A stretch of 64,000 nt of DNA, taken from positions 36,855 through 100,854 of the IMG/VR virus record IMGVR_UViG_3300046713_000096; one strand, written 5' to 3'. A program made the translations under genes and the position numbers. Below the pieces are notes generated by a model that was not told the DNA's origin, did not search any database, and saw only the letters and a program-made list of their open reading frames with translations. This DNA comes from a virus. This document shows, in pieces, positions 17,477 to 45,511 of this stretch. Position 1 is the stretch's first letter. The number at the start of each line of letters is the position of its first letter.

Positions 17477-17483
17477 AGTTCTC

Positions 17484-30513: not shown

Positions 30514-30675
30514 TCACTTCGCCACCTGCGCACCGGGCATGCGGCCTTCGAGCCGATACAGCTCAGCAAGCCACTTCGTGCGCTGTGCGAGAAGGTACGG
30601 GCACCACGAGATGCGCAGCATGCCCGTGTAGGTGTCGATGATCCCGAGCACTTGTTCTCGCGTGACGTTTTGCAT
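30514..30675 (-). CDS. Leaderless small protein (53 aa; not in the ORF track)
   Basis: MQNVTREQVLGIIDTYTGML...; ATG 6 nt after the -10. Confidence 0.65.
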   Translation of the reverse strand: MQNVTREQVLGIIDTYTGMLRISWCPYLLAQRTKWLAELYRLEGRMPGAQVAK

Positions 30676-30882
30676 ACTCATACTCTAGCGCGGTTTCGCT
30701 TCAACGCAAGCACTTTTCAAAACTGCCGCGTTACGCCCTACCTCCCATCGCTACCGCCCAAAATCGAACCCACCCCGCGATCCGTTTCGCGTCCCGCAAT
30801 GCCGCCTCTGCAACCACTTGCGCCGCAAACCCCGCCCACCACATGAATCCGCCACTCATTTTGTACGCTCCGGTTGTTTGTG

Positions 30883-31266
30883 TCATGCCTGCACGGCGTC
30901 GACGTCGCAAGCGGCTGCAAGCGCGCGACAGTGCACAGAGAACTCGCCGTGCGCCTTGATCAAGTCGCCCTGCAGGCTCAAGAGCGCGCGACCGATCGCA
31001 GGCTTCTCGCTGTACCCGCTCAAGAGCGCAGCGGCTTCTGATACGCGTGTGGCCATCGGCAGATACTTGCGCGCAGCGGCCTTGTCGTTCGTCGCGATGA
31101 AGTCAGCGAGGTACAGCGCGCACAGCTTGATCGCACTCGACAGGTCAGCGAAGGCGATGGCGCGCGCGTCGCACATCTTGAACGTGTTGGGCAAGCTCGC
31201 GATGTGCAAGGCCTGGCCATTGAGCGTGCGCACGATGCTGTCGGCCGTTTTCGAGTTCGATTTCAT
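30883..31266 (-). CDS. Leaderless hypothetical protein
   Basis: ATG 6 nt after TAGATT. Confidence 0.75.
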   Translation of the reverse strand: MKSNSKTADSIVRTLNGQALHIASLPNTFKMCDARAIAFADLSSAIKLCALYLADFIATNDKAAARKYLPMATRVSEAAALLSGYSEKPAIGRALLSLQGDLIKAHGEFSVHCRALAAACDVDAVQA

Positions 31267-31308
31267 ACGTTCAATCTAGCGCGGTTTCGCTTCAACGCAA
31301 CGACTTTT

Positions 31309-31485
31309 TCAGCGGGCTTCGCGCGCACGCTGAGCGGCGACGATTTCCGCTTCGAGATCATCGGCTTGCTTCTTGTACTGCGCGACGAGGTCGTCGAAGC
31401 CGGATGCTTGCGCAGCATCCATCAGCGACAGTTTGGCGGCCTTCTTCATGCGTAGGGCTTCGATCCGGGGCGTTGCGAACATCAT
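31309..31485 (-). CDS. Small helical protein (58 aa; not in the ORF track)
   Basis: MMFATPRIEALRMKKAAKL... Its stop lies in the A-tract of the next repeat. Confidence 0.55.
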   Translation of the reverse strand: MMFATPRIEALRMKKAAKLSLMDAAQASGFDDLVAQYKKQADDLEAEIVAAQRAREAR

Positions 31486-31537
31486 GGCGATCTACCTGCT
31501 TTCAATGCGGAAAGGGCCCCGAAGGGCCCGATCTCGT

Positions 31538-31900
31538 TCAGATTGCGACACCGAGGCCGCTGGCGGCCTCTGCCCATTCGGGGCGCTCGACTACGAGGCG
31601 CGAATCGTACGCGTTGCGCGGTTCCATGCTGCGACCGCCGTGCGCGTTCTGCAGGTACATGCACGCCTGCGCGCGCTCGCTCGGCACGTAGCCGACGAAG
31701 CGGCCCTTGTGGTTGTAGTGCGCGGTCACGAAGCCGCGGTCGACGAGTGTGCACAAGGCACTGTTGTCGATGTGGTTGATCGACGTGGCGCCCATGTCGG
31801 CCGCCGCATTTTGGAAGATGGTTTGCAAGGCCATGAAGGCCTTGCCCGAGAGCGTGCCCATCACGAAGGTTTCGACCACGATTGCTGCGAGATTCAACAT
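31538..31900 (-). CDS. Leaderless hypothetical protein
   Basis: ATG 6 nt after TAGGAT; hairpin follows the stop. Confidence 0.75.
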   Translation of the reverse strand: MLNLAAIVVETFVMGTLSGKAFMALQTIFQNAAADMGATSINHIDNSALCTLVDRGFVTAHYNHKGRFVGYVPSERAQACMYLQNAHGGRSMEPRNAYDSRLVVERPEWAEAASGLGVAI

Positions 31901-31974
31901 ACTCATATCCTAGCGCGGTTTCGCTTCAACGCAACAACTTTTTAGCTAGCGGTTGCTAGGGCCAGCAAGGTCGG

Positions 31975-32373
31975 CTACTTAGCCGTCGGCGTGTACATCG
32001 CAGCGACTTCGAGACAGCCTGCGAAGTCGAGGTCGGCACCCGTCAGCGGGTGCTTGTCGGTGCAGAGCACAAGCATGCCGCTGCACGCGCGCTCGATCTT
32101 GATCTGGTAGCCGAAACCGGGGTTTAGGCGGTCGCAGGGGCCGAAGCTGACGTAAAGCGGGCCGCGCTGTGCGCTGGCAACGGCTTCGGCCTTGATGGCA
32201 CCGAGAAGCCCGGGCGCGTTCGAAGCGACTGGCACATATCCGCGTTGCTCGTTCAATACCCACCATTCGCCGTGCGGTGCCGCACTCGTGGGCTCGGTGT
32301 AGTAGTACTCGCCAGCGACGCCAGCGCGACGCACGAGCTCGCGCTTGCCATAGGGTGTGTTGATCATCGCCAT
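31975..32373 (-). CDS. Hypothetical protein (second gene of a cassette)
   Basis: 132 aa; AAGGA RBS upstream. Confidence 0.65.
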   Translation of the reverse strand: MAMINTPYGKRELVRRAGVAGEYYYTEPTSAAPHGEWWVLNEQRGYVPVASNAPGLLGAIKAEAVASAQRGPLYVSFGPCDRLNPGFGYQIKIERACSGMLVLCTDKHPLTGADLDFAGCLEVAAMYTPTAK

Positions 32374-32394
32374 GTGTGTCTCTTTCCTTCGGAA

Positions 32395-32655
32395 TCAGCA
32401 GAAGTCGCACGTGCCGGGCACGTTGTGCGCGCACGGGCCCACGTTGAAGATCGCGAGCGGGTCAGCGGCCTTCGGCGCGGTCGCGCCGCCGTAGTCGCTC
32501 GCGCTGTGCGCCGCAAACCACTTCGAGGCCGCCTTCGGATCCTTGCGCTGGCACTTGCCGCACGGGGTAGGGATCCGCTCGCTGCACAGGCCGTTGCACA
32601 GCGGGCAGTGACCGATCGAGCCGTACCACTTCGTCGCTTTGTTCGTCGTCGTCAT
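32395..32655 (-). CDS. Leaderless Cys-rich small protein
   Basis: MTTTNK start; CPLC, CGKC and CDFC motifs. Confidence 0.75.
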   Translation of the reverse strand: MTTTNKATKWYGSIGHCPLCNGLCSERIPTPCGKCQRKDPKAASKWFAAHSASDYGGATAPKAADPLAIFNVGPCAHNVPGTCDFC

Positions 32656-32881
32656 ACCCATACACTAGCAGGGGTTCGCTTCAACGCAAGATCTTTTTAG
32701 CCTAGAGACTCATGGGCCCATATGTGCCTACAAAGCTTCTTCGCTTCGAAGCATGTCTTGACGTCGTGCCCTGACAGGGCGCGCCTGCAGAAGTCGTGCA
32801 TCTTGTGGTCGCCCGCAATCTGCGCAGCGGCCATCTGCCCGCGGATCTCGTCGGCTTCGGCAGTGCTGAGCGCGCGCGTGC

Positions 32882-33136
32882 TCACACGCACACCCAAAGG
32901 CAATCTTTGTCGCTGATCAGCTTGATCAGGCCGGCCCTTGCAGCGGCGCGCAGGTTACGGCTGTAGATGCGCATGTCGGTGCGCGGAAAGCCGCGCTCTT
33001 TCAAGCCCGTCGCCTCGACGAGCTTCTGACCGTCGACCACGAGCCCGATGCTGCGCGCGTGCACGACCTTGATCGCGCTCGCGAAATTCGCGGTGTGAAT
33101 CTGCGCGTCGGTCAGTCCGTTTGTCTTCATCGCCAT
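32882..33136 (-). CDS. Leaderless hypothetical protein
   Basis: ATG 6 nt after TATTCT. Confidence 0.7.
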   Translation of the reverse strand: MAMKTNGLTDAQIHTANFASAIKVVHARSIGLVVDGQKLVEATGLKERGFPRTDMRIYSRNLRAAARAGLIKLISDKDCLWVCV

Positions 33137-33774
33137 AACCTAAGAATAGCGCGGTTTCGCTTCAACGCAACGCCTTTTTAGCTAGGGTTGTTTGGCACGA
33201 TTCTGCGCCTGTCAGCGGCACGGGTCGGCGGGCGCGCGTAGCTAAGCTATCTGCGCATCTCGGTGACCGCGCCTGCGACCGCGAGCGCAATCGGCGCTCA
33301 CAAGCGATCCTGACGCAGCGTCACGTGCGACATGCAGGCGCACAGCCTACACGGCGGGCGCGGCGCGGGGCGCGCGTAGGGCCCTGCAGGGCGCGCCAGC
33401 GTCGGACCCAAGCGAGCGCACCGGCCCGGGCGCCAGCGTGGCGCCAGCGGGCTACAGCTCGCCCCGCGGGCCTGTCTCGTCTTCGAAGCTGCCCACGACC
33501 TCGCCAGCGCTGTCGAGCACATAGCGGCGCGTGTACCAATAGCCGTCACCGTTGACCGGGCACGCGACCGTTTTCTTGTAGCGATCGCCGACCGTTGCGA
33601 GCTCAAGGCCGGCTGTCGCGAGGCAGGCGAGCTCTGCCTCGGTAGGCTCGCGATCGAGGCGCACGGCGCTCGCAGGCGCGCCCTTGCGGCACAGGTAAAA
33701 CACATTGGGTTTCGTGGCGTTCGTCATCTTCGTTTGCCCTTGCCCGGGCCCGTCGGCGCGGGCCCTGTTCAGCT

Positions 33775-34014
33775 TCACGCACCCGTAACGTTGCGAAAGT
33801 TCACGTTATATTCGTTGTAGGCGACTTCCTGCGCGGCGCGCAGGTAGAAACTCGGTGTCATTTCATAGGCTTCGCCGTCTGCGAGCTCGTGCATCAAGCC
33901 CGTCACCTTGCGGTTGAAGGTTTCGGCGCTGTCGGCGCTGTTCTTCAGGCAAGCGGCCATCAGGGCCTTGTAGCTGTTGCGAAGCTCGGTGACCGTTTTC
34001 GTCGTCGTCGTCAT
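33775..34014 (-). CDS. Leaderless hypothetical protein
   Basis: MTTTTK start 6 nt after TATTGT. Confidence 0.75.
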   Translation of the reverse strand: MTTTTKTVTELRNSYKALMAACLKNSADSAETFNRKVTGLMHELADGEAYEMTPSFYLRAAQEVAYNEYNVNFRNVTGA

Positions 34015-34097
34015 ACCCATACAATAGCAGGGGTTCGCTTCAACGCAACAACTTTTTGGCTAGGCGCGCACGCGGGCCCCGAAGGGCCCGGAATCAT

Positions 34098-34469
34098 TCA
34101 CGCGGCCTTCAGCGCGCGACCCGCTGCGATCACTTCGGCGCGCAGGCCGACGGGCAGGTGCGCAAGCTCGCGGCGCGCCCAAGCGGTGTCAGCGACGATC
34201 AACATGTCTGCCGCGGCGCGCTTCGCCATGTGCAGGGCCCACGAGCGATTTGCCGTGAGGATCCGGTCGCCTGACTCGGCCAGCGCACTGAGCGCGCACG
34301 ATGCGTTCAGGCGCGCGGCTTGCACCGCGGTGACCGAGCGCGCTGACAGCGTGCCCGCGCCCATGCACGCGAAACACTTGCCGTTGTCGATGTGCCCGAG
34401 CCAAAAGAGCTTGCCCTTGCCGTCGCACTTGCCGCACTTCACTCGAACCGTTTTCGTTGTCGTCGTCAT
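34098..34469 (-). CDS. Leaderless protein with a DnaJ-type Zn finger
   Basis: CGKCDGKG and CFACMGAG. Confidence 0.75.
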   Translation of the reverse strand: MTTTTKTVRVKCGKCDGKGKLFWLGHIDNGKCFACMGAGTLSARSVTAVQAARLNASCALSALAESGDRILTANRSWALHMAKRAAADMLIVADTAWARRELAHLPVGLRAEVIAAGRALKAA

Positions 34470-34551
34470 ACACATAGAATAGCGCGGTTTTGCTTCAACG
34501 CAACGACTTTTTAGGCGGGCGAGCATCGGGCCCCGAAGGGCCCGGAATCGT

Positions 34552-34845
34552 TCAGGATGCTTTCTGTTCGAGCGCAGCCAAGCGCGTCGCCTGCGCCTTC
34601 AGCTCGGATTCAAGTTCAGCGATCCGATCATCCTGTCGGATGCCGCGCACGAGGTCGCGCGTCTCGATCACGGCTGACCGCAGCTCTAGCAGCGCCGTCG
34701 AGAGTCTGACCTCGCTCTCGATCCGCAGCCGATTCAGGTCGGCGCCTTGCGCCTTCAGTGCTTGGATCTCTGCTTTCGCCTCGCGAAGCTCATCTCGGAT
34801 CTCACGCAACACCATCAGGGTCTGATCTGGTTTCTTCGTCGCCAT
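34552..34845 (-). CDS. Coiled-coil small protein
   Basis: 97 aa heptad pattern; AAGGT RBS upstream. Confidence 0.65.
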   Translation of the reverse strand: MATKKPDQTLMVLREIRDELREAKAEIQALKAQGADLNRLRIESEVRLSTALLELRSAVIETRDLVRGIRQDDRIAELESELKAQATRLAALEQKAS

Positions 34846-34863
34846 TGTCTTACCTTACCTCGT

Positions 34864-35142
34864 TCAGTGGTCGCCTGCAGGGCCCGCGCGGTAGCCGGGG
34901 GCGGTGATGCGTATCTCGCCGTTTACCTCGGTCACAGTCGCCTGCGTCGCTGTGAAGAATTCGACCGCTTCGCATGTCAGCTCGGTCGTGATGCCGAGTT
35001 GTGCGCAGAGTCGGTTCCACAAACCGATCTCGGCATGGATGCTGATAGGGCCCTTCCAATCGCGCGCGTCGCACACAACGTCGAAGGCTGTCTTCAGAAG
35101 GTCGCGCTTCGCGTTCATCGTGGCAAGCTCGGTCGAGGTCAT
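34864..35142 (-). CDS. Hypothetical protein downstream of structured leader copy 1
   Basis: GGAG RBS; 92 aa. Confidence 0.7.
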   Translation of the reverse strand: MTSTELATMNAKRDLLKTAFDVVCDARDWKGPISIHAEIGLWNRLCAQLGITTELTCEAVEFFTATQATVTEVNGEIRITAPGYRAGPAGDH

Positions 35143-35187
35143 GACAGTGTGCTCCGTTGCGAGGTGTTGAAAGTTGCTTTCGGGGTC

Positions 35188-35250
35188 CGACAGAGAGCCG
35201 CGTGCATCGAGCCCTGTGCGGGCCGCCGCTGCCTTTGCTCTCTGTCGACA
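35188..35250 (-). ncRNA. Structured leader/sRNA, family A, copy 1
   Basis: Begins at the predicted +1. Stem CGACAGAGAGC/GCTCTCTGTCG; a 38-nt core is identical to copy 2. Confidence 0.6.
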
Positions 35251-35284
35251 ACGTTCATACTAGCGCGGTTTCGCTTCAACGCAA

Positions 35285-35392
35285 CAACTATTTGCAGATG
35301 GTTTTCTAGGTGTATGCGTCCAGCGCACGCGCCCAATGCTAGCTATCTTCCCCCCGATCGAGAGGCGCTGAAGCCCGTAGAATCGTGCCAAC
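35285..35392. repeat. Block-conserved upstream element, copy 1
   Basis: Four blocks identical to 40395-40502, with 6/6/24-nt variable spacers. Confidence 0.75.
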
Positions 35393-35450
35393 GCACAGCG
35401 GGCCCGAAGCGCGCGCTGCGCCCGGGCCCGAGTGACTGTGCGAGCTTCGT

Positions 35451-35816
35451 TCACGCGATCTCGACTTGGTACAGCGGCGCGATCATCTCGACTGCGAGCT
35501 TCGCCGTCGAGGCGCGCCCGATGCCACGGCCTTCGGCGCTGATCTCGTAACCGCTGTCGCCGTAGGCGAGCTCGACCGTGCCGCGGCGCGTCTGGCAAAT
35601 CAGGATCGAGCCTTCCTTGCGAGCCTTGCGCATGTCCGACTGCGCGGCCTTGCACATCACATCCCACACGCTGCCCGGCTGCACGTCGCTCGCGTCGACG
35701 CACACGCTACCGCTCGCGAGGCGCACGTCGACGCCGTGTGCGTGCACGCGCTCGACGCTGCCCTTGTAGCCGTTCACCACCACGCTGTCGCCCGTCTTGA
35801 TTGCTGCGCTGTCCAT
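35451..35816 (-). CDS. Leaderless protein with an SH3/KOW-like N-terminus
   Basis: IKTGDSVVVNGYKGSVERV. Confidence 0.7.
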   Translation of the reverse strand: MDSAAIKTGDSVVVNGYKGSVERVHAHGVDVRLASGSVCVDASDVQPGSVWDVMCKAAQSDMRKARKEGSILICQTRRGTVELAYGDSGYEISAEGRGIGRASTAKLAVEMIAPLYQVEIA

Positions 35817-35929
35817 GACCTAAGACTAGCAGGGGTTCGCTTCAACGCAACGCCTTTTTGGGTGTTCCCGAAAAGCAAAGGGCCCGCGGCTACTTGCCCG
35901 GGCCCTTGTCCGACGCGATCCGCTCAGGA

Positions 35930-36253
35930 TCACACACCGACGAGCGCAGCGTGCACGCGAGCAGGCACGGTCGTCGCGCGCTTCCACTGCGCGAACCACG
36001 ACGGATCCATGTACGTGCGCGCCTTGACCTTGTAGGCGTAGCGCTGACCGCGATCCATGATGTCGATGAAGCGCACGACGTGCTTGCCGTTCTTCAGGCG
36101 CTCGCCCGTCGGCACCATGTACTGCGTCACGTTGCCGTCGCGGTTCGCCCACGTGTAGATCACGCCGGCTTGCGGCGCGCTGCCGATGTACAGCGCTTCA
36201 GGGGCCTGCAGGAAGTCGGGCGTCGTGTTCGTCGTGTTCGTCGTCGTCGTCAT
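35930..36253 (-). CDS. Leaderless hypothetical protein
   Basis: MTTTTNTTN start. Confidence 0.75.
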   Translation of the reverse strand: MTTTTNTTNTTPDFLQAPEALYIGSAPQAGVIYTWANRDGNVTQYMVPTGERLKNGKHVVRFIDIMDRGQRYAYKVKARTYMDPSWFAQWKRATTVPARVHAALVGV

Positions 36254-36294
36254 ACACATATCTTAGCGCGGCCTCGCTTCAACGCAACAACTTT

Positions 36295-36543
36295 TCACGC
36301 GACAATCAGGTAGGCGCCGATCCCGCCATTGTTCAGGGTGTGGATGTAGCCGCCGCGATCTTGCGCAGTGCCGACGTAGCCGCCGAAGTGCTTGAGCTCG
36401 TCGGGCGCTTCTTCGAGCTGCACCTGAAAGTCGACCCCGAAGCGGGTTTCGCGCTTGGCGATAACCGTGCCAAAGCGGTCGGCCTCGCAGATCGGATTGT
36501 GGAAAGCTACGCGGTCGCCGATGCTGGGTTGTTTCGTCGTCAT
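36295..36543 (-). CDS. Leaderless SH3-like small protein
   Basis: MTTKQPSIGDRVAF...FGTVI. Its stop lies in the A-tract of the next repeat. Confidence 0.7.
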   Translation of the reverse strand: MTTKQPSIGDRVAFHNPICEADRFGTVIAKRETRFGVDFQVQLEEAPDELKHFGGYVGTAQDRGGYIHTLNNGGIGAYLIVA

Positions 36544-36627
36544 ACCCATACAATAGCAGGGGTTCGCTTCAACGCAACGCCTTTTCACTTAGACGCGCAG
36601 GCGGGCCCCGAAGGGCCCGCAATCACT

Positions 36628-37425
36628 TCACTCTGCCTCGCGCTCGACGCCCACGTCTTCGACGCCCAAGATCGTCGAGGCGCAGTCGCGACCGACCCAC
36701 ATGCTAATCAGGCGCTCGCGACCGCTGCGCCGGTCGGTCATTTCCATCGCGACGAACATGCGCGACGGGATGAACTTGCCGCACACCTGACAGTGGCACG
36801 GCCCTTGAAACCGACTTTGATTGTGCACGATCCCTGCGCTCCACTTCACGCGGTAGCTTTTTTCCATCACAGGCGCGCCGTCACGGTCGAAGGTCAGCTC
36901 GCCCTGTTTGTTGCGCGCCTGCACCATGAACGCCTCGATCTCGGCTGGCTTGATCGTGCTCAAGTCTACGTCGAGGTTACAGTCTTTCAGCGTCGCAGTG
37001 ACCCGCGGGCTCGCGCCGATCGCGGTGATGACCGGGCGGGGTCGCGCGCTCGACAGTGCCGCGAATTCCGTGCTCTTGAGCGTGCACAGGTAGCCCCATG
37101 CTTGCAGCACTTCGAGCGACAGGCCCTTGACCGCGGTCACACCTTGCACGTTGCTGAAGTCGCCTGCGAAGCTTTGGCCGTACATGACGCATCTTTCTTG
37201 CTCGCTCGGATAGGGTAGCCAGCCGCTCAGCTTGCGAAGCTGCGCGCGCGACAGTAGGCCGCTGTAGAATGCCGAGTCGGCGCTCGCGTGCCCGCGCTTG
37301 ATCCAGCTGCCTTGCGCGATGCTCGCGTCCCACACGCGCATGCTCTCTTCGAACTTCGCGAGCTTCGCGCCCTTCAGAAAGCCCTTGATGGTCGCCGTCG
37401 CGGTTTCTTTTGTCATCGTCGTCAT
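36628..37425 (-). CDS. Leaderless hypothetical protein (265 aa) with a C-terminal Zn site
   Basis: CQVCGK and WVGRDCA, resembling the Zn site of the 16137 product. Confidence 0.8.
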   Translation of the reverse strand: MTTMTKETATATIKGFLKGAKLAKFEESMRVWDASIAQGSWIKRGHASADSAFYSGLLSRAQLRKLSGWLPYPSEQERCVMYGQSFAGDFSNVQGVTAVKGLSLEVLQAWGYLCTLKSTEFAALSSARPRPVITAIGASPRVTATLKDCNLDVDLSTIKPAEIEAFMVQARNKQGELTFDRDGAPVMEKSYRVKWSAGIVHNQSRFQGPCHCQVCGKFIPSRMFVAMEMTDRRSGRERLISMWVGRDCASTILGVEDVGVEREAE

Positions 37426-37434
37426 ACACATATT

Positions 37435-37692
37435 CTAGCGGGGTTTCGCTTCAACGCTACAACTTTTTGGTGCACAAAGCATGCACTCTTCGCAGAACTC
37501 AGGAAACCGCGCCAAGCGCAGCGCGCGGCGCTTGCTTGTCTCGCCGACGAGCGTGGCATGTAGGCGGCACACGACCGCGTAGCGCCCGTCGACGTCGAGC
37601 CCTTGCTCGCGCGCAACGTACACCACGACCCGGGCGCCTGTGGGCTCGTAGGTCGCCTGGCCTACGTAGCCCGCATGATTGGCTTCATCCAT
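37435..37692 (-). CDS. Hypothetical Cys/His protein
   Basis: YAVVCRLH and PEFCEEC; reads through the next promoter copy. Confidence 0.55.
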   Translation of the reverse strand: MDEANHAGYVGQATYEPTGARVVVYVAREQGLDVDGRYAVVCRLHATLVGETSKRRALRLARFPEFCEECMLCAPKSCSVEAKPR

Positions 37693-38121: not shown

Positions 38122-38210
38122 ACACATAGAATAGCGGCGTTTCGCTTCAACGCAACAACTATTTTCCTAGATTCGCATCGGGCCCCGAATGGGCCCGGAT
38201 TCGCTCGGGA

Positions 38211-38453: not shown

Positions 38454-38676
38454 GACCTCAGATTAGCGCGGTTTCGCTTCAACGCAAGCACTTTTTAGGC
38501 GGTCATCTCCCAACGCTCGAACGGGCACGCCTCGCCGCTGATTACATCGTAGGCACTCTGCCACGACCGGGCCGTGTGCTTGCTCGTGCGGCCACTCGAC
38601 CACCATACGCGCAGCGTTACCGAGCCCGTCAGCGCGCAGCGATGGCCTGCGCGCTCTTGCTCGCTCGTGAACTTCT

Positions 38677-38967
38677 TCATGACGCCACACCGAAAAACTT
38701 CTTGAACTCGGGCAGATTGCCGTGCCATGCCGCGATGTCGTTGATCGCTTCGGCAGCTTCGCTCGCGTCAGCCTTGCGCCACTGCTCGGCTACTGCGCAC
38801 GGCCCGAGCACCTTGCACGTCATCGGCACCCACACCGTCGTCGTGCCGCGCTTCGTCTGCGTCAGCACGTACTGTCGGCCGCTCGCGTTGTGGCGAAACC
38901 GTTGCCACATGTGCGCGCGAAACGTCTTCGTGTGAATCAGCAAGGTGTCTTTCGTCGTGTTGCCCAT
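38677..38967 (-). CDS. Leaderless hypothetical protein
   Basis: MGNTTK start. ATGA-coupled to a small ORF at 38495-38680. Confidence 0.7.
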   Translation of the reverse strand: MGNTTKDTLLIHTKTFRAHMWQRFRHNASGRQYVLTQTKRGTTTVWVPMTCKVLGPCAVAEQWRKADASEAAEAINDIAAWHGNLPEFKKFFGVAS

Positions 38968-39011
38968 ACGCTCAGATTAGCGTGCTTTCGCTTCAACGCA
39001 ACAACTATTTA

Positions 39012-39073
39012 TCGCATACACCATAGCCATTGTGGGTTCCAGTGTCACTGTAACCACAACTGTCGAGGCCCCT
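39012..39073 (-). ncRNA. Candidate sRNA, family B, copy 1
   Basis: The promoter copy is followed by AGGGGCCTCGAC...GGTTACAG...GAACCCACA.TGGCTATG and then the next promoter, with no ORF. Confidence 0.5.
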
Positions 39074-39274
39074 AAGTCCAGTATGGCGCGCGTTTCGCTT
39101 CAACGCAAGTCTTTTTTAGGCGGCTTCTTGTACCACTCGCGATCGCGTTTCGCGCGTGCACGTCGACGCAGCTCGCGCTCGACGAACCACCCCGCCGCCA
39201 AGACGAAGCCACACAGCACAAAGACGCCCGCGGCTTGCGCTGGCGTCTCGATCGAGTCTAGGCACATGCCTACA

Positions 39275-39577
39275 TCATACCGGGCCGCCCACGAACGCGA
39301 TGACGGCTTCGTCGCTGGCATGGCCCAAGATACGGCCCGCGGCTTTCCAGCTGTCAGAGCGGCGCACAATGCCGTCAGCGGCCACGAACGCAAGAGCCGA
39401 ACGCGACCCGCCCTCGGTCGACCAGAAGATCCGCGCGTACTTGCGCCCGAGCTCGAAGCCGAAGTCGTGATAGGTGGGCCGCCGACCGAGCTTCGCGGTC
39501 ATCAGGTCGGCGCGCGCGTTCAGCGCCGCTACGAAGGCCGTCGCGTGCGCGCTGATGCTCTCGGTCGTCATGGTCAT
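39275..39577 (-). CDS. Conserved phage hypothetical protein downstream of structured leader copy 2
   Basis: GRKYARI...AFV...SWKA pattern. Confidence 0.7.
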   Translation of the reverse strand: MTMTTESISAHATAFVAALNARADLMTAKLGRRPTYHDFGFELGRKYARIFWSTEGGSRSALAFVAADGIVRRSDSWKAAGRILGHASDEAVIAFVGGPV

Positions 39578-39588
39578 CTCTTCCCGGC

Positions 39589-39655
39589 TGTCGACAGCGA
39601 GCCGCATTGCATCGAGCCCTGTGCGGGCCGCCGCTGCCTTTGCTCGCCGTCGACA
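39589..39655 (-). ncRNA. Structured leader/sRNA, family A, copy 2
   Basis: Stem TGTCGACGGCGAGC/GCTCGCTGTCGACA; one compensatory change relative to copy 1. Confidence 0.6.
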
Positions 39656-39840
39656 ATGCTCATACTAGCGCGGTTTCGCTTCAACGCAACGACTTTTTAG
39701 CGCCGGTTAAATACCCGTCCGATATCCCAATGAAACCGGGCCCATCCATACACGAATGCCACGTCTTCGACGAAGGTCTTGATCCACTTTCGCACTGTAC
39801 TTCCCCTGATCCCCGAGCTTGCCCTATCGTGTCGCCCACC

Positions 39841-40125
39841 ATGGACGAACGCGAGAGATCTCTGACGTTGTACTACCGCGAGCTACCGGACGGCTTCGAG
39901 GTCGCCGTCTTGCCGCTCACCTATGGCCACGCGCACCTGTGCTACGGCAGACAGGGCGACGACGGCTACATGGACAGCTATTTCTACGCCGATCCCGCCG
40001 TTGCGAGGGCGGCTGCCGAAGTGTGGGACGGTCAGCACGACCCGCTTGATGGCTGGTACCGTCACCCGAGCACGGGTCGCCGTCGCAAGGATGGTGACCC
40101 GAAGCACGAATATTTCTTGCCCTGA
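39841..40125 (+). CDS. Hypothetical protein
   Basis: MDERER start; DPLDGWYRHPSTGRRR motif. Confidence 0.6.
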   Translation: MDERERSLTLYYRELPDGFEVAVLPLTYGHAHLCYGRQGDDGYMDSYFYADPAVARAAAEVWDGQHDPLDGWYRHPSTGRRRKDGDPKHEYFLP

Positions 40126-40132
40126 AGCGGCT

Positions 40133-40360
40133 TCAGCCGGCCAGCGGCCCGAGCCCGAGCATCGCGAGCTCACGGAAAAGTGCGTTCGTGCGCTCGACTG
40201 CATCCCATCCGCGCGCGATGCCCTTCTCGTCGTGCTTGCCCTTGACCGCTTCGACGACGGCATGTTCTGCCTTGCGTGCGGCGTCCAGGTCGGCGCGAAT
40301 CTGCGCCTCGGTGCGTGTCGTCTTCGTCGTCTTCGTCGTCTTGTTGCTGCGCTTGCCCAT
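40133..40360 (-). CDS. Leaderless small protein
   Basis: MGKRSNKTTKTTKTT start. Confidence 0.7.
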   Translation of the reverse strand: MGKRSNKTTKTTKTTRTEAQIRADLDAARKAEHAVVEAVKGKHDEKGIARGWDAVERTNALFRELAMLGLGPLAG

Positions 40361-40394
40361 GACCTAAGACTAGCGTGGTTTCTCTTCAACGCAA

Positions 40395-40502
40395 CAACTA
40401 TTTGCAGATGACCGTTTAGGTGTATGCGTCCAGCGCACGCCCCGAGTGCTAGCTATCTGGGCATCCTTCTCGGCCGCTACGCGCCCGTAGAATCGTGCCA
40501 AC
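40395..40502. repeat. Block-conserved upstream element, copy 2, between divergent promoter repeats
   Basis: Same four blocks and spacer lengths as 35285-35392. Confidence 0.75.
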
Positions 40503-40521
40503 ACGTGAGCCTAAAAAGTTG

Positions 40522-40549
40522 TTGCGTTGAAGCGATGTGCTGCTACGAT
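40522..40549 (+). promoter_or_regulatory. Promoter repeat copy for the membrane protein gene
   Basis: TTGCGT-TGAAGCGATGTGCTGC-TACGAT, then 8 nt, then ATG. Confidence 0.7.
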
Positions 40550-40557
40550 GTCTCTTC

Positions 40558-41631
40558 ATGGACAGCAACACACGACGCACGATCGGCCTTTGCGGGATCG
40601 TCGCCGCTTACCTCGCCTCGCGCGCGTTTCTTCTCGGCCAATGGACGGGCCCAAACGCTTGGATGTACGGCCTGTTCGCCGACGCCGCGAGCTGCGGAAG
40701 AAATCCCTACCTTCTGCCTGAAGGTGGGTCGATCGGCCCGGAATTGGCTGACTATCCGCCACTGTGGATGGTCGCGTTCGGCGCGTTGGCGCAGTGGATG
40801 CGCAGCGACTACGCCGTGCGAATCGTCTGCTATGCCGGCGATGCTGTGCTGATGCTCGCCGCCCTGCGCTTCGCACGAAAGCGCCTGACCGCCGACGCCG
40901 CTGCGACCGCTGCGCTCGTCGCGCTCAACCCCGCTTGGTTTTGGGCCGACATGTGGATGCTGCAATACAAGGCATGGGCAACGGCTGGCCTCGTCTTCCT
41001 TGCGACGACCGAGTCGGCGCTCGTGACCGGGGCGCTCGCTGGCGCCTTTCTGTTGCCCGGTGTCTTGCTGCCGATGCGCTGGCTCAAGGATCGGGACTGG
41101 CGCGCACTGATGGGCGGCACCGCGGTCGCAGTGGCCTTGTGGCTGCCATGGTTCCCAAGCTCGATCATGGGCGTGCTAGCTCGTCGCTCGGCCGCGCCGC
41201 ACAACACGGGCTATTGGGGTGAGTCACTCGGTGGCTACCTGCCCCGCGCCGTGCAGCCGTTCCTTCTCGCAGTCGCGGTCGGGCTCGCGCTCGTCATCAT
41301 GGCACGCGGTCGCGCGCCCCTCGCGGTGCGCTTTGCTGGCGCGACCTCGCTCGTCATCGCATGCATGCACGACGCGATGGTCAATCGCTGGCTACCGTTT
41401 GCGCTCGTGCCGCTGCTCACCTGTGAGCTTGGCGCGCGCTCACGGTGGGTCGCCTTCGGCCTGTGCTGCATCAGCTGCGCTGCGACCTGGAATGTGCTCG
41501 TGTTCCGCGCCGACGTCCCCGCCATCGTGGGCGTACTCATCAACGCCCCGCTGCCGCTGGCGGCATGGGCGGCCTACCGCAACGGCCAGCGCCGCCCATG
41601 CCCCGTGTTGCTGGCGCAGCCGTCAGCGTAA
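40558..41631 (+). CDS. Polytopic membrane protein, GT-C glycosyltransferase-like
   Basis: Many TM helices; GRNPY...DYPPLW in the first loop and ALNP motif. Confidence 0.6.
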   Translation: MDSNTRRTIGLCGIVAAYLASRAFLLGQWTGPNAWMYGLFADAASCGRNPYLLPEGGSIGPELADYPPLWMVAFGALAQWMRSDYAVRIVCYAGDAVLMLAALRFARKRLTADAAATAALVALNPAWFWADMWMLQYKAWATAGLVFLATTESALVTGALAGAFLLPGVLLPMRWLKDRDWRALMGGTAVAVALWLPWFPSSIMGVLARRSAAPHNTGYWGESLGGYLPRAVQPFLLAVAVGLALVIMARGRAPLAVRFAGATSLVIACMHDAMVNRWLPFALVPLLTCELGARSRWVAFGLCCISCAATWNVLVFRADVPAIVGVLINAPLPLAAWAAYRNGQRRPCPVLLAQPSA

Positions 41632-41805
41632 CCAGCAAGCGAGCAGAGCAAGCGCGCACAAAACGTTCACGATCCATCCGATCGCGCTCAGCACGATCGG
41701 GTTGCCCATGATCCGGCCTTGCCAAGCGTGCGCGAAGATGGCCAGCGCGACGACACAAGACGCTACAGCGTTCGTTTCCATGTGCATGTGTGATGCCTCC
41801 GACCG

Positions 41806-42729
41806 CTAGATAGCTGGCGCGTCGAGGTCACGCGGGTCGCGGAAGCCCTGAAAGCTGGCGATCCGCGGCTTGTCTTTGCGCCCGTGATCCTGGAAACGGT
41901 AGCGCACGATCCGCCCGACCATGATGTCGCGACACTGGAAAATGCGCCTGCGCAGCTCCCATGTGAGGCCGATCCCCGTCCCGATCTTGAACTCGACGCC
42001 CGTCTGCAGGTCGCGCACGACGAGCTTGCCCATCACGCCGCCGTCGACCTTGTTCGCCTTCAACGTGCGCCGCTTCGTCTGTCCGAGCTCGCCGACGAAG
42101 GCTTCGTTTTGGTTGTGCTGAAGTTCGAGCACAGCCACGATCACCGCCTCACTGTCGGTAAAGCGCTTCAGCTTCGACAGGTAGCCCTGACGCAGCGTTG
42201 CACGGCCGCACTTGTAGGGGCCTTCGAGCGCACGAAGCATCACGCCTTCATGCCCGGCTGCGAGCATCTCTTTCTCATATGCCGCGAGCGATTCGGGGGC
42301 GTCGATCCACACGTGCCGACACTCGATCACGTGCTTCCACGCCTCGCCGTGTTGCTTGAAGGTCTGACGCACGTCGCGCACGCGCGCAGCGAAGGCCTCG
42401 CCCGGAAGCACCGGCACGCGGTCGAACACCACGAAGAACCAGTCGTCGGGGGGTGGCTTCTCGCGCGACATGACCGCGCTCTCGACCGCTTGGAACGTCG
42501 CGGGGTATGGAAGCATCAGCTCGCCGTCGAAGCCCTCTGCGTGGCGGCCAAGCGCTTCGAGCACGGCCCGCATGTGCACATTGGGGATCGGCTTCAGCGA
42601 CCGAGCAACGGCCTTGCCGTCGCGAATCACGCACCGGATGCCGTCATACTTCGGGCTAGCCAGCACAGGGTAGCTGACCGCGCTCGCGTCCTTCAGCGTG
42701 GCGGCAAGCATCGGGCGAAACTGTGGCAT
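41806..42729 (-). CDS. lig: ATP-dependent DNA ligase
   Basis: SPKYDGIR, FDGEL, EGVMLR, KLKRF and FKIGTG motifs. Confidence 0.93.
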   Translation of the reverse strand: MPQFRPMLAATLKDASAVSYPVLASPKYDGIRCVIRDGKAVARSLKPIPNVHMRAVLEALGRHAEGFDGELMLPYPATFQAVESAVMSREKPPPDDWFFVVFDRVPVLPGEAFAARVRDVRQTFKQHGEAWKHVIECRHVWIDAPESLAAYEKEMLAAGHEGVMLRALEGPYKCGRATLRQGYLSKLKRFTDSEAVIVAVLELQHNQNEAFVGELGQTKRRTLKANKVDGGVMGKLVVRDLQTGVEFKIGTGIGLTWELRRRIFQCRDIMVGRIVRYRFQDHGRKDKPRIASFQGFRDPRDLDAPAI

Positions 42730-42810
42730 GTCAGGCCTTCCCAAAAAGAAAAAGGGCGGACCGCTCGCACGGCCCGCCCGCCCGTCGGGGGGGTGACAGG
42801 TCATCTGACC

Positions 42811-43677
42811 CTAGTACTTGTACCCGGCCTGCACAAGCAACTTGCCGAGCTTCGATGTCTCGCCCGGGATGTGTGAGCCAAGCGCAAGCCGTATGCCGAA
42901 GACGGTTTCGGGTTCGAGCTTCGCCGACAGATCTTCGTCGTCGACGAGCTTCACGAGCACGCGCTTCGGTACGCCTGTCACCTTGCCCGCCGCCTTCTTG
43001 GCGCTCGACGTAGTGACCTTCCGCTTGCCGTTCTTCTTCGGCGTGGCGCCCGCTAGAAGCTTGTCGAGCTGCGCAACTTGCTCTTCCTTTTCCAGGCCAT
43101 GCAGCTCGGCCGCTGCGCTGGCGCTGATGTCGCCGTTCGCGACCGCCTTCTTGACCTTCGAGGGCAGCGACGCCATTTTGACCCAATTTTTGACCGCCGC
43201 CGTTGTCACATTGAAGTGGTTTGCAGCGGCCTTGTAGTCGTTGCCGTTGCGTGCGAGCAGACGCATGCACTTCTCGGCCTTCAAGACGACGTTGTCGTCT
43301 TGTCGGTGCTCGTTCAGCGCAATCATGACGCCCTGCACGTGCACGTCGTCACCGTTCTCGAAGACGGCGCTGACGTATACGAGCTCTTCCCCGAGCTTCT
43401 TCAGTCGCTTGTTGGCTTCGCGCGCATGGCGCAGGCGCCCGCGACCGTCGACGACTTCGACACGGCCTTCGGCGCACTTACGAAGCACGATCGGCTCTTT
43501 GACGCCGATCGCCATGATATTGAGCACAGTCGCCTCGACGAGCGGCAAGTGAATGCGCTCATCGTACAGCTCGTGCTCGGGTCCATCTTTGGTGTCGAGC
43601 CCGATGATCACGGGCTCGTTCGGATCGTACTGATGCAGATTCCCGCGCTTAGCGGGCATGATAGCGGCAGCTCCCAT
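42811..43677 (-). CDS. ParB/Srx-like protein with HTH
   Basis: GVKEPIVLR, VVDGRGRLR, LNEHR, and an HTH-like AANHFNVTTAAVKNWV. Confidence 0.75.
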   Translation of the reverse strand: MGAAAIMPAKRGNLHQYDPNEPVIIGLDTKDGPEHELYDERIHLPLVEATVLNIMAIGVKEPIVLRKCAEGRVEVVDGRGRLRHAREANKRLKKLGEELVYVSAVFENGDDVHVQGVMIALNEHRQDDNVVLKAEKCMRLLARNGNDYKAAANHFNVTTAAVKNWVKMASLPSKVKKAVANGDISASAAAELHGLEKEEQVAQLDKLLAGATPKKNGKRKVTTSSAKKAAGKVTGVPKRVLVKLVDDEDLSAKLEPETVFGIRLALGSHIPGETSKLGKLLVQAGYKY

Positions 43678-43822
43678 GATTCAAGACTCCCTGCGTTTTA
43701 TACTTCGACATGCCGACATACCCCGGCTTGTGCGATAGCGATGACCCGAAGCCCTGTCAAGCGCCACTTTTTTCGCGTAGCGGGCCCGGGGGAAGTGTTC
43801 CGGGCCCGAGCTTCGTTTCACG

Positions 43823-44146
43823 TCACAGCGACAGGTAAAGGCCTGTCCCTTCTGAAATTATGCGGCGCAGCTGGCCAACGTCGACGCGCTCGACTTCCTG
43901 AAGTTGCTTCACACCGCCCGTGACCGCGCCCGTCTTCGCGTTGAATCCGATTTTCGTCACGCGATCAAAACGCACCGTGTACAGGTCATCAGCGGTCAGG
44001 GTCACTGTAACGTGCGTCACCTTCTTGCCGTTTGTGCCGATTTTGAACTGCAGGTGCGAGGGGCCGCCAAGCAGGTTCTTCGCGCCCATCATGGCGAATG
44101 CACGATTGCCGATTTGTTCTGCGATGATGTTTGCGACGTTCGACAT
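43823..44146 (-). CDS. Leaderless conserved phage hypothetical protein
   Basis: IAEQIGNRAFAMMGAK and DDLYTVRF. Confidence 0.75.
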   Translation of the reverse strand: MSNVANIIAEQIGNRAFAMMGAKNLLGGPSHLQFKIGTNGKKVTHVTVTLTADDLYTVRFDRVTKIGFNAKTGAVTGGVKQLQEVERVDVGQLRRIISEGTGLYLSL

Positions 44147-44191
44147 ACCCATATGGTAGCGCGCGTTCGCTTCAACGCAACCACTTTTTAA

Positions 44192-44252
44192 CGGACATGT
44201 CATAGCCAATGTGGGTTCTTGTGTAGCTGTAACCCGTGCCGTCGAGGCCCCT
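44192..44252 (-). ncRNA. Candidate sRNA, family B, copy 2
   Basis: Same conserved blocks and spacing as 39012-39073, between two promoter repeats. Confidence 0.5.
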
Positions 44253-44294
44253 ATGTCCAGTGTAGCGCGGCCCTCGCTTCAACGCAACGCCTTG

Positions 44295-44639
44295 TTAGCT
44301 AGACCTGCATGGATAGTGCATCGGGGGCAGGATCCGCGCCATGCAATCACCGCACATTCGATCGTCGAAGCTGACGGGGCGCGCCTTGCACTCGCAGCAC
44401 GAGTGCGGGCTTACGCGCCAAAGGATGCCGCACCGCCAACAAGCTATCTCGACGAGGTAGCCATTGCGGGCGCGAAGCCGGCGCTTGCGGCCGCACTCGG
44501 GGCACGGCTGGCGCAGCAAGCTCAGCGGCCACTGTCGGATCGTCGTGCGCACCTGCAATGACGGCTGCGCCTTCTTGGCGCGCTTCTTGGGCTTCTTGGG
44601 CTCGCGCTTGAGCTCTTCTCGTAGCGCGTCGAGCTTCAT
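44295..44639 (-). CDS. MKLxxLR-family Zn-finger protein
   Basis: Starts MKLDALR; CPEC, CWRC, CCEC and CGDC motifs. Confidence 0.65.
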   Translation of the reverse strand: MKLDALREELKREPKKPKKRAKKAQPSLQVRTTIRQWPLSLLRQPCPECGRKRRLRARNGYLVEIACWRCGILWRVSPHSCCECKARPVSFDDRMCGDCMARILPPMHYPCRSS

Positions 44640-44986
44640 CAGTTAGCCCGCCGCACGTCTCTTCCGTACAGCGCGCGCATTTCGAGCACCTTCGTCACAG
44701 CGTGATCGAGGTCGTCGCACTGGTAGGCCTCGAACGTCATCCACAGGTCGAACGGGTCGAGTCGGTGCACGCGCGCCTTGTGCGCGATCTCGATCGCCTG
44801 CCACACCTGCAGGCCGTCGGTTTCGTGCGCGTCCAAAAGCCGGTAGACCGCCAAAGCGTCTTTGATCGAGCCGTCGTCGTGCAGCATCGCGATCGCGCCG
44901 TATAGCCCACACAGTGCACGACCTATCGCACTCGCCATGGTGGAAAACATGGCGAGAAGTACCGCGCCGCCTGCCCGGGCGCTGGA

Positions 44987-45469
44987 CTACTCCCAGCGAA
45001 TGCGGGTCGCGCCCGAGCTCTGCGCTGCGCTGGCTAGCTCTTCGAGGCGCCCAAGCGCCTGCGACAGGCTCTCGGACGTGTAGCCGGCCCTGTAGAACCT
45101 CGGGCCCGCTTCCGAGGCGCGCAAGACAGCCGGCTGGCTCACGTTGCGCGCACGAAGCAAGGCGCGCCGAAACACCGCGAGCTCGATCGAGCCGTAGCCG
45201 TCGCCCAAGTCGAGGCCCATGGCCGAAGCCACCGTGCGCGCGTTCTCGTTCGCAAAGTTCACAGCGGGGCGCGCGTCACGCGAGCAGGGTTCGACGCCCG
45301 TGCCCTCACACTGTGCGCAATCCGGGGCAGCGTGCTCGGCCAGCGACGCCCAATCGGTCGACTCACCACGAAACAGCGAACCCCACGAGGGCGCCATTTG
45401 TGCGCACAGGCAGGGCTCGACGGTTTCTTCGCGCGGCACGCTGACGTCTGCGATGAAGCTGATCGACAT
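44987..45469 (-). CDS. Leaderless hypothetical protein
   Basis: ATG 7 nt after TAGACT; CAQCEGTG motif. Confidence 0.7.
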   Translation of the reverse strand: MSISFIADVSVPREETVEPCLCAQMAPSWGSLFRGESTDWASLAEHAAPDCAQCEGTGVEPCSRDARPAVNFANENARTVASAMGLDLGDGYGSIELAVFRRALLRARNVSQPAVLRASEAGPRFYRAGYTSESLSQALGRLEELASAAQSSGATRIRWE

Positions 45470-45511
45470 ACCCTACAGTCTAGCAGGGGTTCGCTTCAAC
45501 GCAACACCTTT

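Follow-up and report, generated by a model that had tools for sequence, protein, structure and literature searches.

The DNA analysed here (the window) is a stretch of 64,000 nucleotides, bases 36,855-100,854 of a 100,854-bp virus record in IMG/VR (IMGVR_UViG_3300046713_000096; 62% GC, estimated completeness 98%). It contains a 15-kb block that is probably an array of about 22 self-contained units, each headed by a copy of a repeated promoter for the host polymerase, mostly with leaderless starts, and with the repeats acting as recombination patches. The repeat would be read by a host sigma-70-type RNA polymerase, using an A-tract that resembles an upstream promoter (UP) element, a -35 hexamer TTGCGT, a 16-nt spacer, a -10 hexamer TAnnnT and a 6-nt discriminator. 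For 20 of the copies, out of 25, the A of the ATG would be the transcription start, giving mRNAs with neither a 5' untranslated region (UTR) nor a Shine-Dalgarno (SD) sequence, which would be translated by a leaderless route. In other copies the same promoter would instead carry a leader of ~35 nt with GGAG, a structured leader of ~65 nt, or a transcript of ~60 nt without an open reading frame (ORF). As short patches of homology, the repeats would allow RecA, a RuvC-like resolvase and SbcCD to delete, insert and re-head units. Such general recombination is the proposed reason why the array keeps a backbone collinear with that of related phages and yet differs from it by many unit-sized segments.

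Anatomy of the repeat

The 15-mer TTGCGTTGAAGCGAA, with up to two mismatches allowed, has 25 matches in the window against 0.27 expected, a number reached in none of 100 shuffles; there are no copies in the first 36.8 kb of the record. A preliminary description, made by reading the sequence, had given 25 copies with 20 of them within 30.6-40.6 kb, and both counts were reproduced (20 lie between 30,695 and 40,536). The minus strand holds 22 of the 25, between 30.7 and 46.5 kb, and the orientation is always the sense of the downstream gene. The repeat is a sharply bounded unit of ~50 bp, from -10 to +40 relative to the start of the -35 hexamer: pairwise identity among the copies stays at the background of 0.28 until 10 nt before the -35, is 0.7-1.0 over the following ~50 nt, and is back at background by +50. 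Within this phage, exact matches shared by two copies reach at most 45 nt, with 16 nt as the median.

The layout of a unit is an A-tract, TTGCGT, a 16-nt spacer beginning TGAAGCGAA, (T)GC-TAnnnT, 6 nt and ATG. The first 9 nt of the spacer are near-invariant and the last 7 variable, and TGn precedes the -10 in about half of the copies. The spacer length of 16 nt given earlier as usual holds except in two ORF-less copies (39108 and 44287), where it is 17 nt. These features support a predicted sigma-70-type geometry, pointing with the downstream gene. A register with TTGAAG as the -35 and the -10 in the last six positions ahead of the ATG was also considered and discarded: these positions carry little information, and TAnnnT at the 16-nt spacing is nearly invariant.

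Relatives were found in two ways. An exact-motif scan of IMG/VR gave two genomes, G001 (107,690 bp, direct terminal repeats, 14 strong promoter copies) and G002 (81,974 bp, ~80% complete, 22 promoter copies), and a metagenome scan gave 15 further contigs carrying the promoter, for which soil or groundwater is suggested by the identifiers alone. Among these contigs L122 (Ga0190271_10001122) is a 14.8-kb piece of a fourth array. In its minus strand, between 723 and 9441, two promoter subfamilies stand side by side, TTGCGT with GCTAnnnT and AAGCGT with CCGTAtnnT, and in some copies the ATG comes just 5 nt after the -10. The TTGCGTTGAAGCGAA motif was not found in two distant relatives, G006 and G008, whose large terminase subunit (TerL) is 58-62% identical. 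G006 (IMGVR_UViG_3300022391_000001) has six copies of another repeat of ~35 nt, which on the opposite strand reads TCGACT, 17 nt, TATGAT, and which may be the equivalent promoter family of that lineage.

Start codons at the predicted transcription start

Of the 25 copies, 20 have an ATG at a distance of 6-8 nt downstream of the -10 (17 at 6 nt, two at 7 nt and one at 8 nt), so that the 21 copies first reported, with 18 at exactly 6 nt, were each one too many. The five remaining copies comprise two with a structured leader (35284, 39689), two ORF-less units of ~107 nt (39108, 44287) and one atypical copy (46505). Leaderless-type copies leave no space for an SD ahead of the ATG, whereas SD-like words occur at -18 to -5 in 40-57% of the other genes of the phage, against 5-9% of control positions.

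The placing of the ATG at the expected +1, proposed in the preliminary description, agrees with four independent kinds of evidence, the first being the SD usage of the other genes just described. In most copies the promoter itself supplies an in-frame stop, as the TAG or TAA of the -10 or as a TAA, TAG or TGA of the A-tract, at 6-12 nt or 48 nt ahead of the +1 ATG, so that the ORF can start no earlier. The sole earlier option exists in the 11 copies that read TAnnnT-ATG-nGT-ATG: their first ATG, in frame and 6 nt upstream, lies before the predicted transcript, and their second is the expected +1. For annotation this means that the promoter fixes the true start where the upstream ATG can mislead gene callers. 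The orthologues in the two related phages, including those led by an SD, align from the first residue of the +1 ATG. The 120-aa protein, for one, has the N-terminus MLNLAAIVVETF in the window phage and MTNLAAIIVETF behind a GGAG leader in G001; the 160-aa protein starts as MSISFIADV in the window phage and, with a GTG at about +4, as VSVSFIVDV in G001.

The fourth kind is composition. For this, 34 predicted leaderless genes were pooled from the window phage, G001 and G002. The first 30 nt of their predicted mRNAs have a mean minimum free energy of -2.6 kcal/mol, against -7.0 kcal/mol for internal windows of the same genes (Mann-Whitney P = 2e-13), and an A content of 33% against 20%. The start codon is ATG in all 34, as compared with 73% of other genes, and the early codons are A-rich and unstructured, often ATG-ACG-ACG-ACG. 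In Caulobacter crescentus the efficiency of leaderless translation is set by a 5' AUG, the lack of extra 5' nucleotides and a low unfolding energy (PMC8459731). The predicted +1 is also supported by the alternative leader modules described below, which join the promoter at that same position. Together these data support the ATG at the expected +1 as the true start; for the 20 copies, a 5' end at the A of the ATG is predicted, and translation without a leader is supported indirectly. A possible use of leaderless initiation would be expression at a time when host initiation factors or 16S rRNA are under attack.

The messages might, however, not be leaderless. Transcription could start a few nucleotides upstream or read through from the preceding unit, 70S ribosomes could scan or re-initiate, and the constant spacing could reflect a repeat that includes the first codons. 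Read-through is likely given that few units have a strong hairpin, 11 copies have the further upstream ATG in frame, and the transcription start at the ATG is itself a prediction. Four units, moreover, have the stop codon of the upstream ORF in the A-tract, ~45 nt before the ATG. Five such stops had been listed: those at 31309, 36295, 38495 and 45512 stand, and that at 32697 ends an ORF without coding support. This explanation nevertheless appears quite unlikely. The gap between -10 and ATG (6 nt in 17 copies) is the usual distance from a -10 to +1, the alternative leaders begin at the same position, and the low-structure, A-rich, all-ATG signature is expected only with a 5' end at the ATG. 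The plus-strand copies at 40522 and 17449, which head first units and have no gene of their own strand before them, share the layout.

Interchangeable 5' modules

As judged from the copies in all the genomes, one promoter is combined with three predicted, interchangeable 5' modules: leaderless, short SD leader and structured leader. In about half of the relatives' copies the ATG at +1 is missing and a conserved leader begins exactly there instead. The SD module, common in the relatives, consists of GUCAGCAACG, ~15 nt and ACGGAGCAAACGAAG-AUG, and would give a 5' UTR of ~35 nt with a canonical GGAG. Modules are switched between phages: in the window phage the 120- and 127-aa genes are leaderless, in G001 and G002 SD-led. 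Genes that are leaderless here and SD-led in sister phages are natural matched pairs for testing leaderless initiation in infection.

The structured leader (family A) is a hairpin of ~65 nt with an invariant core of ~35 nt (GGCAGCGGCGGCCCGCACAGG...AUGCA) and a closing stem of 10 bp, followed by an SD and a gene. In 12 copies from at least five genomes, compensatory changes are found at 10 of 10 pairs of the stem, the sequence differing from copy to copy and the pairing always being kept. It begins at +1 or +2 of the promoter and is tandemly doubled in G001. An Rfam scan of the array at E <= 1 gave nothing, the family-A leader included. It may serve as a 5' stabiliser or as a protein-binding leader. 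In the ORF-less units (family B) a promoter with the 17-nt spacer is followed by ~60 nt (AGGGGCCUCGAC...UUACAG.GACAC..GAACC), and the next promoter adjoins these directly. The arrangement is kept in a metagenome relative, and these units are candidate small RNAs.

A third repeated element, of ~100 nt, begins TTGGCACGATTCT, holds GATAGCTAGC or TAGCTAAGCTATC, and adjoins promoter copies in either orientation, sometimes divergently. Its TGGCACGAT could be an extended -10 (TGn + CACGAT). The TGGCACGATTCT element was also considered as a sigma-54 promoter and dismissed, since the -12 GC is not at the canonical distance (judged by eye).

Turnover of units among relatives

Core DNA of the window phage is 70-78% identical to that of G001 and G002, and the array aligns in patches only. 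The array is collinear with that of G001, with 12 gene families in the same order (the 160-, 103- and 107-aa genes, those for the ParB-like protein and the ligase, and the 98-, 110-, 80-, 121-, 79+108-, 120- and 127-aa genes). About 11 units are extra in the window phage, for example five consecutive ones between the 80- and 121-aa genes, and four or five are found only in G001. Blocks of homology to the relatives start 7-17 nt before the -35. In the G001 unit P41738, the left flank corresponds to window unit 35284 and the right flank to window unit 34048, with the switch inside the repeat. This would be the product expected of recombination between two promoter copies with the loss or gain of two units; the element in the left flank is itself repeated, which makes its orthology uncertain. 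Orthologues also differ in their first 3-5 residues, drawn from a shared repertoire of N-terminal tags (MTTT versus MDSAA or MGNGK), and the variants flanking the invariant core are found in all four combinations.

Gain and loss of units, orthologues with a different head and the chimeric junction within the P41738 repeat are what would be expected if units are shuffled by recombination between repeats, as had been proposed with the phage RecA as the possible agent. RecA is indeed encoded, as is a RuvC-like resolvase. In T4, homology patches of <50 bp are reported to be sufficient for recombination (PMC2839356).

A dedicated site-specific recombinase could be imagined in place of general recombination. 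The repeats would then be the sites of the phage tyrosine recombinase, and the array a capture platform like an integron. Such a recombinase is encoded in the window, and the cassettes are unit-sized with an invariant asymmetric core. The gene is 20 kb distant, however, and its product looks like a common phage integrase; inverted repeats of the attC kind are missing from the repeats; and every unit has its own promoter, unlike integron cassettes. Since the phage also encodes a full RecA/RuvC/SbcCD set, and part of the rearrangements are not at the repeats, a capture platform of this kind seems most improbable.

Several observations weigh against the picture of host-transcribed, insulated and recombining leaderless units. 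As a -35, TTGCGT matches TTGACA weakly, the sites go undetected in a generic sigma-70 scan, and the host's promoter consensus and capacity for leaderless translation may differ from those assumed. In tblastn searches TerL, DnaE, RecA and the tail sheath are at best 22-38% identical to proteins of phages from many phyla and hosts, which points to no particular host. The position of the transcription start is predicted from the gap between -10 and ATG, and two of the ORFs starting at +1 (39 and 46 aa) have no coding signal. With relatives that are 66-80% identical in DNA, crossovers cannot be placed to the base, and every unit edge bears a repeat anyway. In G002, genes have moved between units away from promoters, and repeat-mediated exchange is therefore not the sole process. 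Finally, strong hairpins are not generally enriched before promoters: their strength there is no different from that in controls (P = 0.2; hairpins of -18 kcal/mol or stronger in 8 of 54 promoter and 1 of 54 control regions), which makes read-through likely and the units not fully insulated. T-tailed terminators were fewer than in shuffles in the generic sigma-70/terminator scan. A GGGCCC-UUCG-GGGCCC hairpin stands 25-26 nt before the -35 in four units of the window phage and in one of G001.

An invariant box within the promoter

All 15 positions of the 15-mer TTGCGTTGAAGCGAA are near-invariant in ~60 copies from three phages that are otherwise 66-80% identical (70-78% in most long blocks), and the next 7 nt are free. 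Within it, a box of 11-13 nt, (GC)GTTGAAGCGAA, overlaps the -35 and the spacer; as GCGTTGAAGCGAA it occurs ~25 times in the phage, always in the sense of the gene. The box is not tied to the promoter hexamers. In three G001 promoters (TTGCAC, 16 nt, TAGATT, 6 nt, ATG) it has moved by 2 nt, and in that of the 316-aa gene (-35 TTGACG, 16 nt, -10 TAGAGT or TACAGT) it is 3 nt nearer to the -10. The AAGCGT subfamily of L122 has lost the TTG and kept the box and a good -10. The distance from box to -10 is thus 7, 5 or 4 nt in different promoters, and the 16-nt spacing from TTG to -10 is kept. Because the box shifts against a fixed promoter spacing and persists without the TTG, two constraints are superimposed, the sigma-70 geometry and a separate, sequence-specific element. 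The latter is the box, most likely bound by a phage regulator, which would switch all units together.

The conserved 316-aa gene adjoins the array on its upstream side; its promoter carries a second half-box 20 nt downstream, and the arrangement is kept in four genomes (the window phage and three relatives). The two boxes suggest autoregulation of this gene, or its co-regulation with the array. Its product has no Pfam or PHROG match. The protein carries repeated CxxCxGxG-like motifs resembling the zinc finger of DnaJ.

As the phage encodes an integrase, an operator is considered the likeliest meaning of the box. A phage repressor acting at ~25 promoters would silence the array in a lysogen or late in infection, an explanation that adds to leaderless expression. 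The tyrosine integrase (phrog_1, 1.6e-20) makes the phage possibly temperate, and near-invariance beside 7 free nucleotides, the shifts of 2-3 nt and the paired boxes 20 nt apart before the 316-aa gene speak for it as well. The box is, furthermore, asymmetric and oriented with transcription like the sites of the L5 repressor (PMC9283540). Against this, domain scans recognised no repressor-like helix-turn-helix gene near the integrase or the array, the integrase is a profile match only, the relatives have direct terminal repeats, and concerted evolution through gene conversion among the copies could also fix the box. A box acting chiefly as an operator is accordingly a serious possibility, rated at somewhat under even.

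The box could alternatively be the site of an activator. In promoters of the middle type, a phage protein at the box, which is centred near -26, would replace a poor -35, as MotA and AsiA do. The weakness of TTGCGT fits this possibility, as does the AAGCGT subfamily, where the box and a good -10 are kept without the TTG. TGn in about half of the copies is also seen in T4 middle promoters (PMC2988021), and the array is downstream of the replication module. However, the 16-nt spacing is kept where the box shifts by 2-3 nt, which suggests a functional -35 and misfits a precisely placed activator. The UP-like A-tract is typical of strong promoters of the host enzyme, and no MotA- or AsiA-like domain was found in any Pfam scan. 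With its position not fixed, the box is less likely to be an activator site than a repressor operator, and we regard activation as unlikely.

In a more far-reaching synthesis, which is tentative and rather improbable as a whole, one ~50-bp element of a temperate soil myovirus would be at once a leaderless platform, a common operator for more than 20 units, small RNAs included, and an exchange patch, the 5' module being swapped independently of the gene and setting the mode of translation. A new phage regulator could be traced by way of the invariant box and the leader RNA with its covarying stem.

Contents of the units

The coordinates of the array and related features are collected in Table 1. 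The cassette proteins are almost all orphans. In Pfam and PHROG scans, 79 of them from the three phages matched only DUF7717, a zinc ribbon, a metallopeptidase-like family and a handful of PHROGs of unknown function, and the 265- and 316-aa proteins had no usable relatives in the ESM Atlas. No paralogy was found among the cassette proteins of the window phage. Earlier, each unit had been said to carry one or two unrelated small ORFs; this mostly holds, the unit with a ParB-like gene and a DNA ligase being the exception. Likewise the term microgenes does not suit the two largest leaderless genes, of 265 and 357 aa. The "early" timing first proposed for them is an inference. A library of anti-defence genes, also proposed, finds no backing in these proteins: the 79 match no known anti-defence family, which speaks neither for nor against it.

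Outside the array (22754-23086, minus strand), a 110-aa protein has an Acb2/Tad1 hairpin domain (PF24729, E = 2.2e-11) and is a candidate sponge for cyclic-nucleotide defence signals. The ORF at 21950-22399 (minus strand) has no Pfam family at E <= 0.01.

Table 1. Array, promoter copies and associated elements (window coordinates unless a genome or contig is named; gap, nucleotides between -10 and ATG)
Feature	Position	Strand	Remarks
Cassette array	30514..45516	-	22 minus-strand promoter copies, ~35 ORFs (39-307 aa), two structured leaders, two ORF-less units
Divergent unit within array	40510-41631	+	One unit
Isolated promoter copy outside array	17437..17486	+	ATG 17484 (gap 7), 133-aa DUF6011 gene 17484-17885; kept in G001
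Promoter copy	30673..30721	-	-10 TAGAGT; ATG 30675 (gap 6); 53-aa then 89-aa ORF
Promoter copy	31264..31312	-	ATG 31266 (gap 6); 127-aa ORF; G001 orthologue SD-led; TGA of upstream ORF in A-tract
Promoter copy	31898..31946	-	ATG 31900 (gap 6); 120-aa ORF; G001 and G002 orthologues SD-led, with the same N-terminus
Promoter copy	32653..32701	-	ATG 32655 (gap 6); 86-aa and 132-aa ORFs
Promoter copy	33134..33182	-	ATG 33136 (gap 6); 84-aa ORF
Promoter copy	34012..34060	-	ATG 34014 (gap 6); 79-aa and 108-aa ORFs; orthologous G001 unit also leaderless
Promoter copy	34467..34515	-	ATG 34469 (gap 6); 123-aa ORF; G002 orthologue leaderless with other N-terminal tag
Promoter copy and family-A structured leader	35179..35296	-	-35 start 35284; leader 35179-35250; GGAG SD; 92-aa and 97-aa ORFs
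Promoter copy	35814..35862	-	ATG 35816 (gap 6); 121-aa ORF; G001 orthologue leaderless
Promoter copy	36251..36299	-	ATG 36253 (gap 6); 107-aa ORF; TGA of upstream ORF in A-tract
Promoter copy	36541..36589	-	ATG 36543 (gap 6); 82-aa ORF
Promoter copy, TAGCGT variant	37423..37471	-	ATG 37425 (gap 6); 265-aa ORF, largest leaderless minus-strand gene
Promoter copy	37853..37901	-	ATG 37855 (gap 6); 46-aa ORF (weak coding score), then possible 85-aa ORF
Promoter copy	38119..38167	-	ATG 38121 (gap 6); 39-aa Cys-rich ORF, weak coding score
Promoter copy	38451..38499	-	ATG 38453 (gap 6); 80-aa ORF; G001 and G002 orthologues leaderless; TAA of upstream ORF in A-tract
Promoter copy	38965..39013	-	ATG 38967 (gap 6); 96-aa and 61-aa ORFs; G002 homologues split over two units
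Promoter copy and family-B ORF-less unit	39014..39120	-	-35 start 39108; 17-nt spacer; -10 CATACT; ~60 nt predicted to be transcribed; abuts next promoter
Promoter copy and family-A structured leader	39584..39701	-	-35 start 39689; leader 39584-39655; SD-led DUF7717 ORF of ~100 aa and 55-aa ORF
Promoter copy, GAAGAGAA variant	40358..40406	-	ATG 40360 (gap 6); 75-aa ORF
Divergent promoter copy	40510..40560	+	ATG 40558 (gap 8); 357-aa ORF 40558-41631
Promoter copy	44144..44192	-	ATG 44146 (gap 6); 107-aa ORF, ParB-like 42811-43659, ATP-dependent DNA ligase 41806-42729, 54-aa ORF
Promoter copy and second family-B ORF-less unit	44193..44299	-	-35 start 44287; 17-nt spacer; -10 TACACT
Promoter copy	45467..45516	-	ATG 45469 (gap 7); 160-, 103- and 114-aa ORFs; TGA of upstream 316-aa ORF in A-tract
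Atypical copy (TTGCGTTGAAGCGAA match 46491-46505)	46462..46517	-	-35 TTGACG, 16 nt, -10 TACAGT; SD-led GTG/ATG 316-aa Cys-rich gene 45512-46462
GGGCCC-loop-GGGCCC hairpin	38180..38196	-	25 nt upstream of next -35; possible terminator, no T-tail
Further GGGCCC hairpins	36603-36618, 34528-34543, 34074-34089, 31514-31529	-	Same hairpin type
Family-A leaders elsewhere	L053:19018-19145, L054:949-1020, L061:12563-12638 and 13562-13637, L114, L115, L120, L122		
Family-B units	39014-39074, 44193-44253; L118:1382-1450	- (window pair)	Kept in metagenome relative
Third repeated element	33193 (+), 35390 (-), 40500 (-); G001 38063, 39656, 41630; G002 73040, 75378, 76896, 79243		
G006 ~35-nt repeat	46957, 48103, 50515, 51196, 78461 (+); 29294 (-)		
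Tyrosine integrase, 445 aa	10042-11379	+	phrog_1 E = 1.6e-20; weak Pfam Phage_integrase match; profile match only

Relation to known systems

Repeated promoter cassettes through which orphan genes are shuffled are, to our knowledge, on record only for T4-type phages, and there they carry SD sites. The array is functionally closest to those cassettes, built on promoter early stem-loop (PeSL) elements, and departs from them in lineage and in the stem-loop. In both systems a strong sigma-70-like promoter (its activity predicted here) with an AT-rich upstream tract is repeated (PMC2839356, PMC4122927). The copies cluster in a variable region, each heading one or a few orphan ORFs; relatives differ by the gain, loss and replacement of whole units, with end points that here may lie in the repeats; and the phage has recombination genes of its own. 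The window phage, however, is not of the T4 type, having a PF04860 portal, a DnaE-type polymerase, an integrase and 62% GC. PeSL crossovers have been mapped "between the SD and the -10" (PMC2839356, PMC4122927), whereas 20 of the 25 copies here lack an SD between promoter and ATG. The preliminary description had named PeSL elements as an analogue, but a stem-loop is present in only ~5 of 22 units and is not a regular part of the repeat. The invariant box in the spacer, the alternative leader modules and the ORF-less RNA units also set the window phage apart. The array thus adds a non-T4, GC-rich, integrase-bearing lineage, a complete -35/-10 with an embedded box, alternative leaders and predicted RNA-only units.

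Bacterial leaderless mRNAs (PMC8459731) resemble the predicted messages in having a -10 that is 6-7 nt before the start, AUG only, no predicted leader and weakly structured first 30 nt. They differ in that here ~20 such genes, with predicted starts, share one repeated promoter in one block of a phage, and an orthologue in a sister phage can have either the leaderless or the SD-led form. Operators and stoperators of Cluster A mycobacteriophages (L5 gp71; PMC9283540) are likewise more than 20 asymmetric sites of ~13 bp, intergenic and oriented with transcription, some overlapping promoters, in phages with an integrase. In the window phage, which shows no sequence similarity to them, each putative site is inside a complete promoter in a fixed register. 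T4 middle promoters (MotA box centred at -30; PMC2988021) share a phage box overlapping the -35, a TAnnnT -10 and TGn in about half. Here there are in addition a TTG at 16-nt spacing and a UP-like A-tract, the box position is variable in non-canonical copies, and no MotA or AsiA homologue was found. Integron arrays consist of promoterless cassettes bounded by attC hairpins, beside an intI gene and one common promoter; here every unit brings a promoter of its own, the repeats have no inverted symmetry and the tyrosine recombinase is 20 kb off.

The phage and its gene content

Comparisons beyond the immediate relatives gave few matches. The array has no megablast match among 50,697 isolate phages. 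A motif scan of 185,579 reference genomes yielded 16 single matches, against ~17 expected by chance by our own rough estimate, and no prophage relative; the sole GC-plausible match, in a contig of a Curvibacter metagenome-assembled genome, proved to be unrelated. A tRNA scan found none.

Pfam and PHROG scans identified, among the genes of the window and record, a portal protein (PF04860, Phage_portal), a large terminase with Terminase_6C, and tape-measure, sheath-like and baseplate proteins. The replication and recombination set comprises a DnaE-type polymerase (Pol III alpha), an SbcCD-like pair, RecA and the RuvC-like resolvase; a 5'-3' exonuclease, an ATP-dependent ligase, a dCTP deaminase, a uracil-DNA glycosylase and a ParB-like protein were also found. 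No phage RNA polymerase or sigma factor was found in the scans, which covered ~75 of ~140 called genes, including all large ones. No att site was found, nor, in scans of the genes near the integrase and the array, a repressor. By its gene content the phage is a myovirus of ~100 kb that encodes an integrase, and it may be temperate. The array is located in the non-structural half of the genome, downstream of the replication module.

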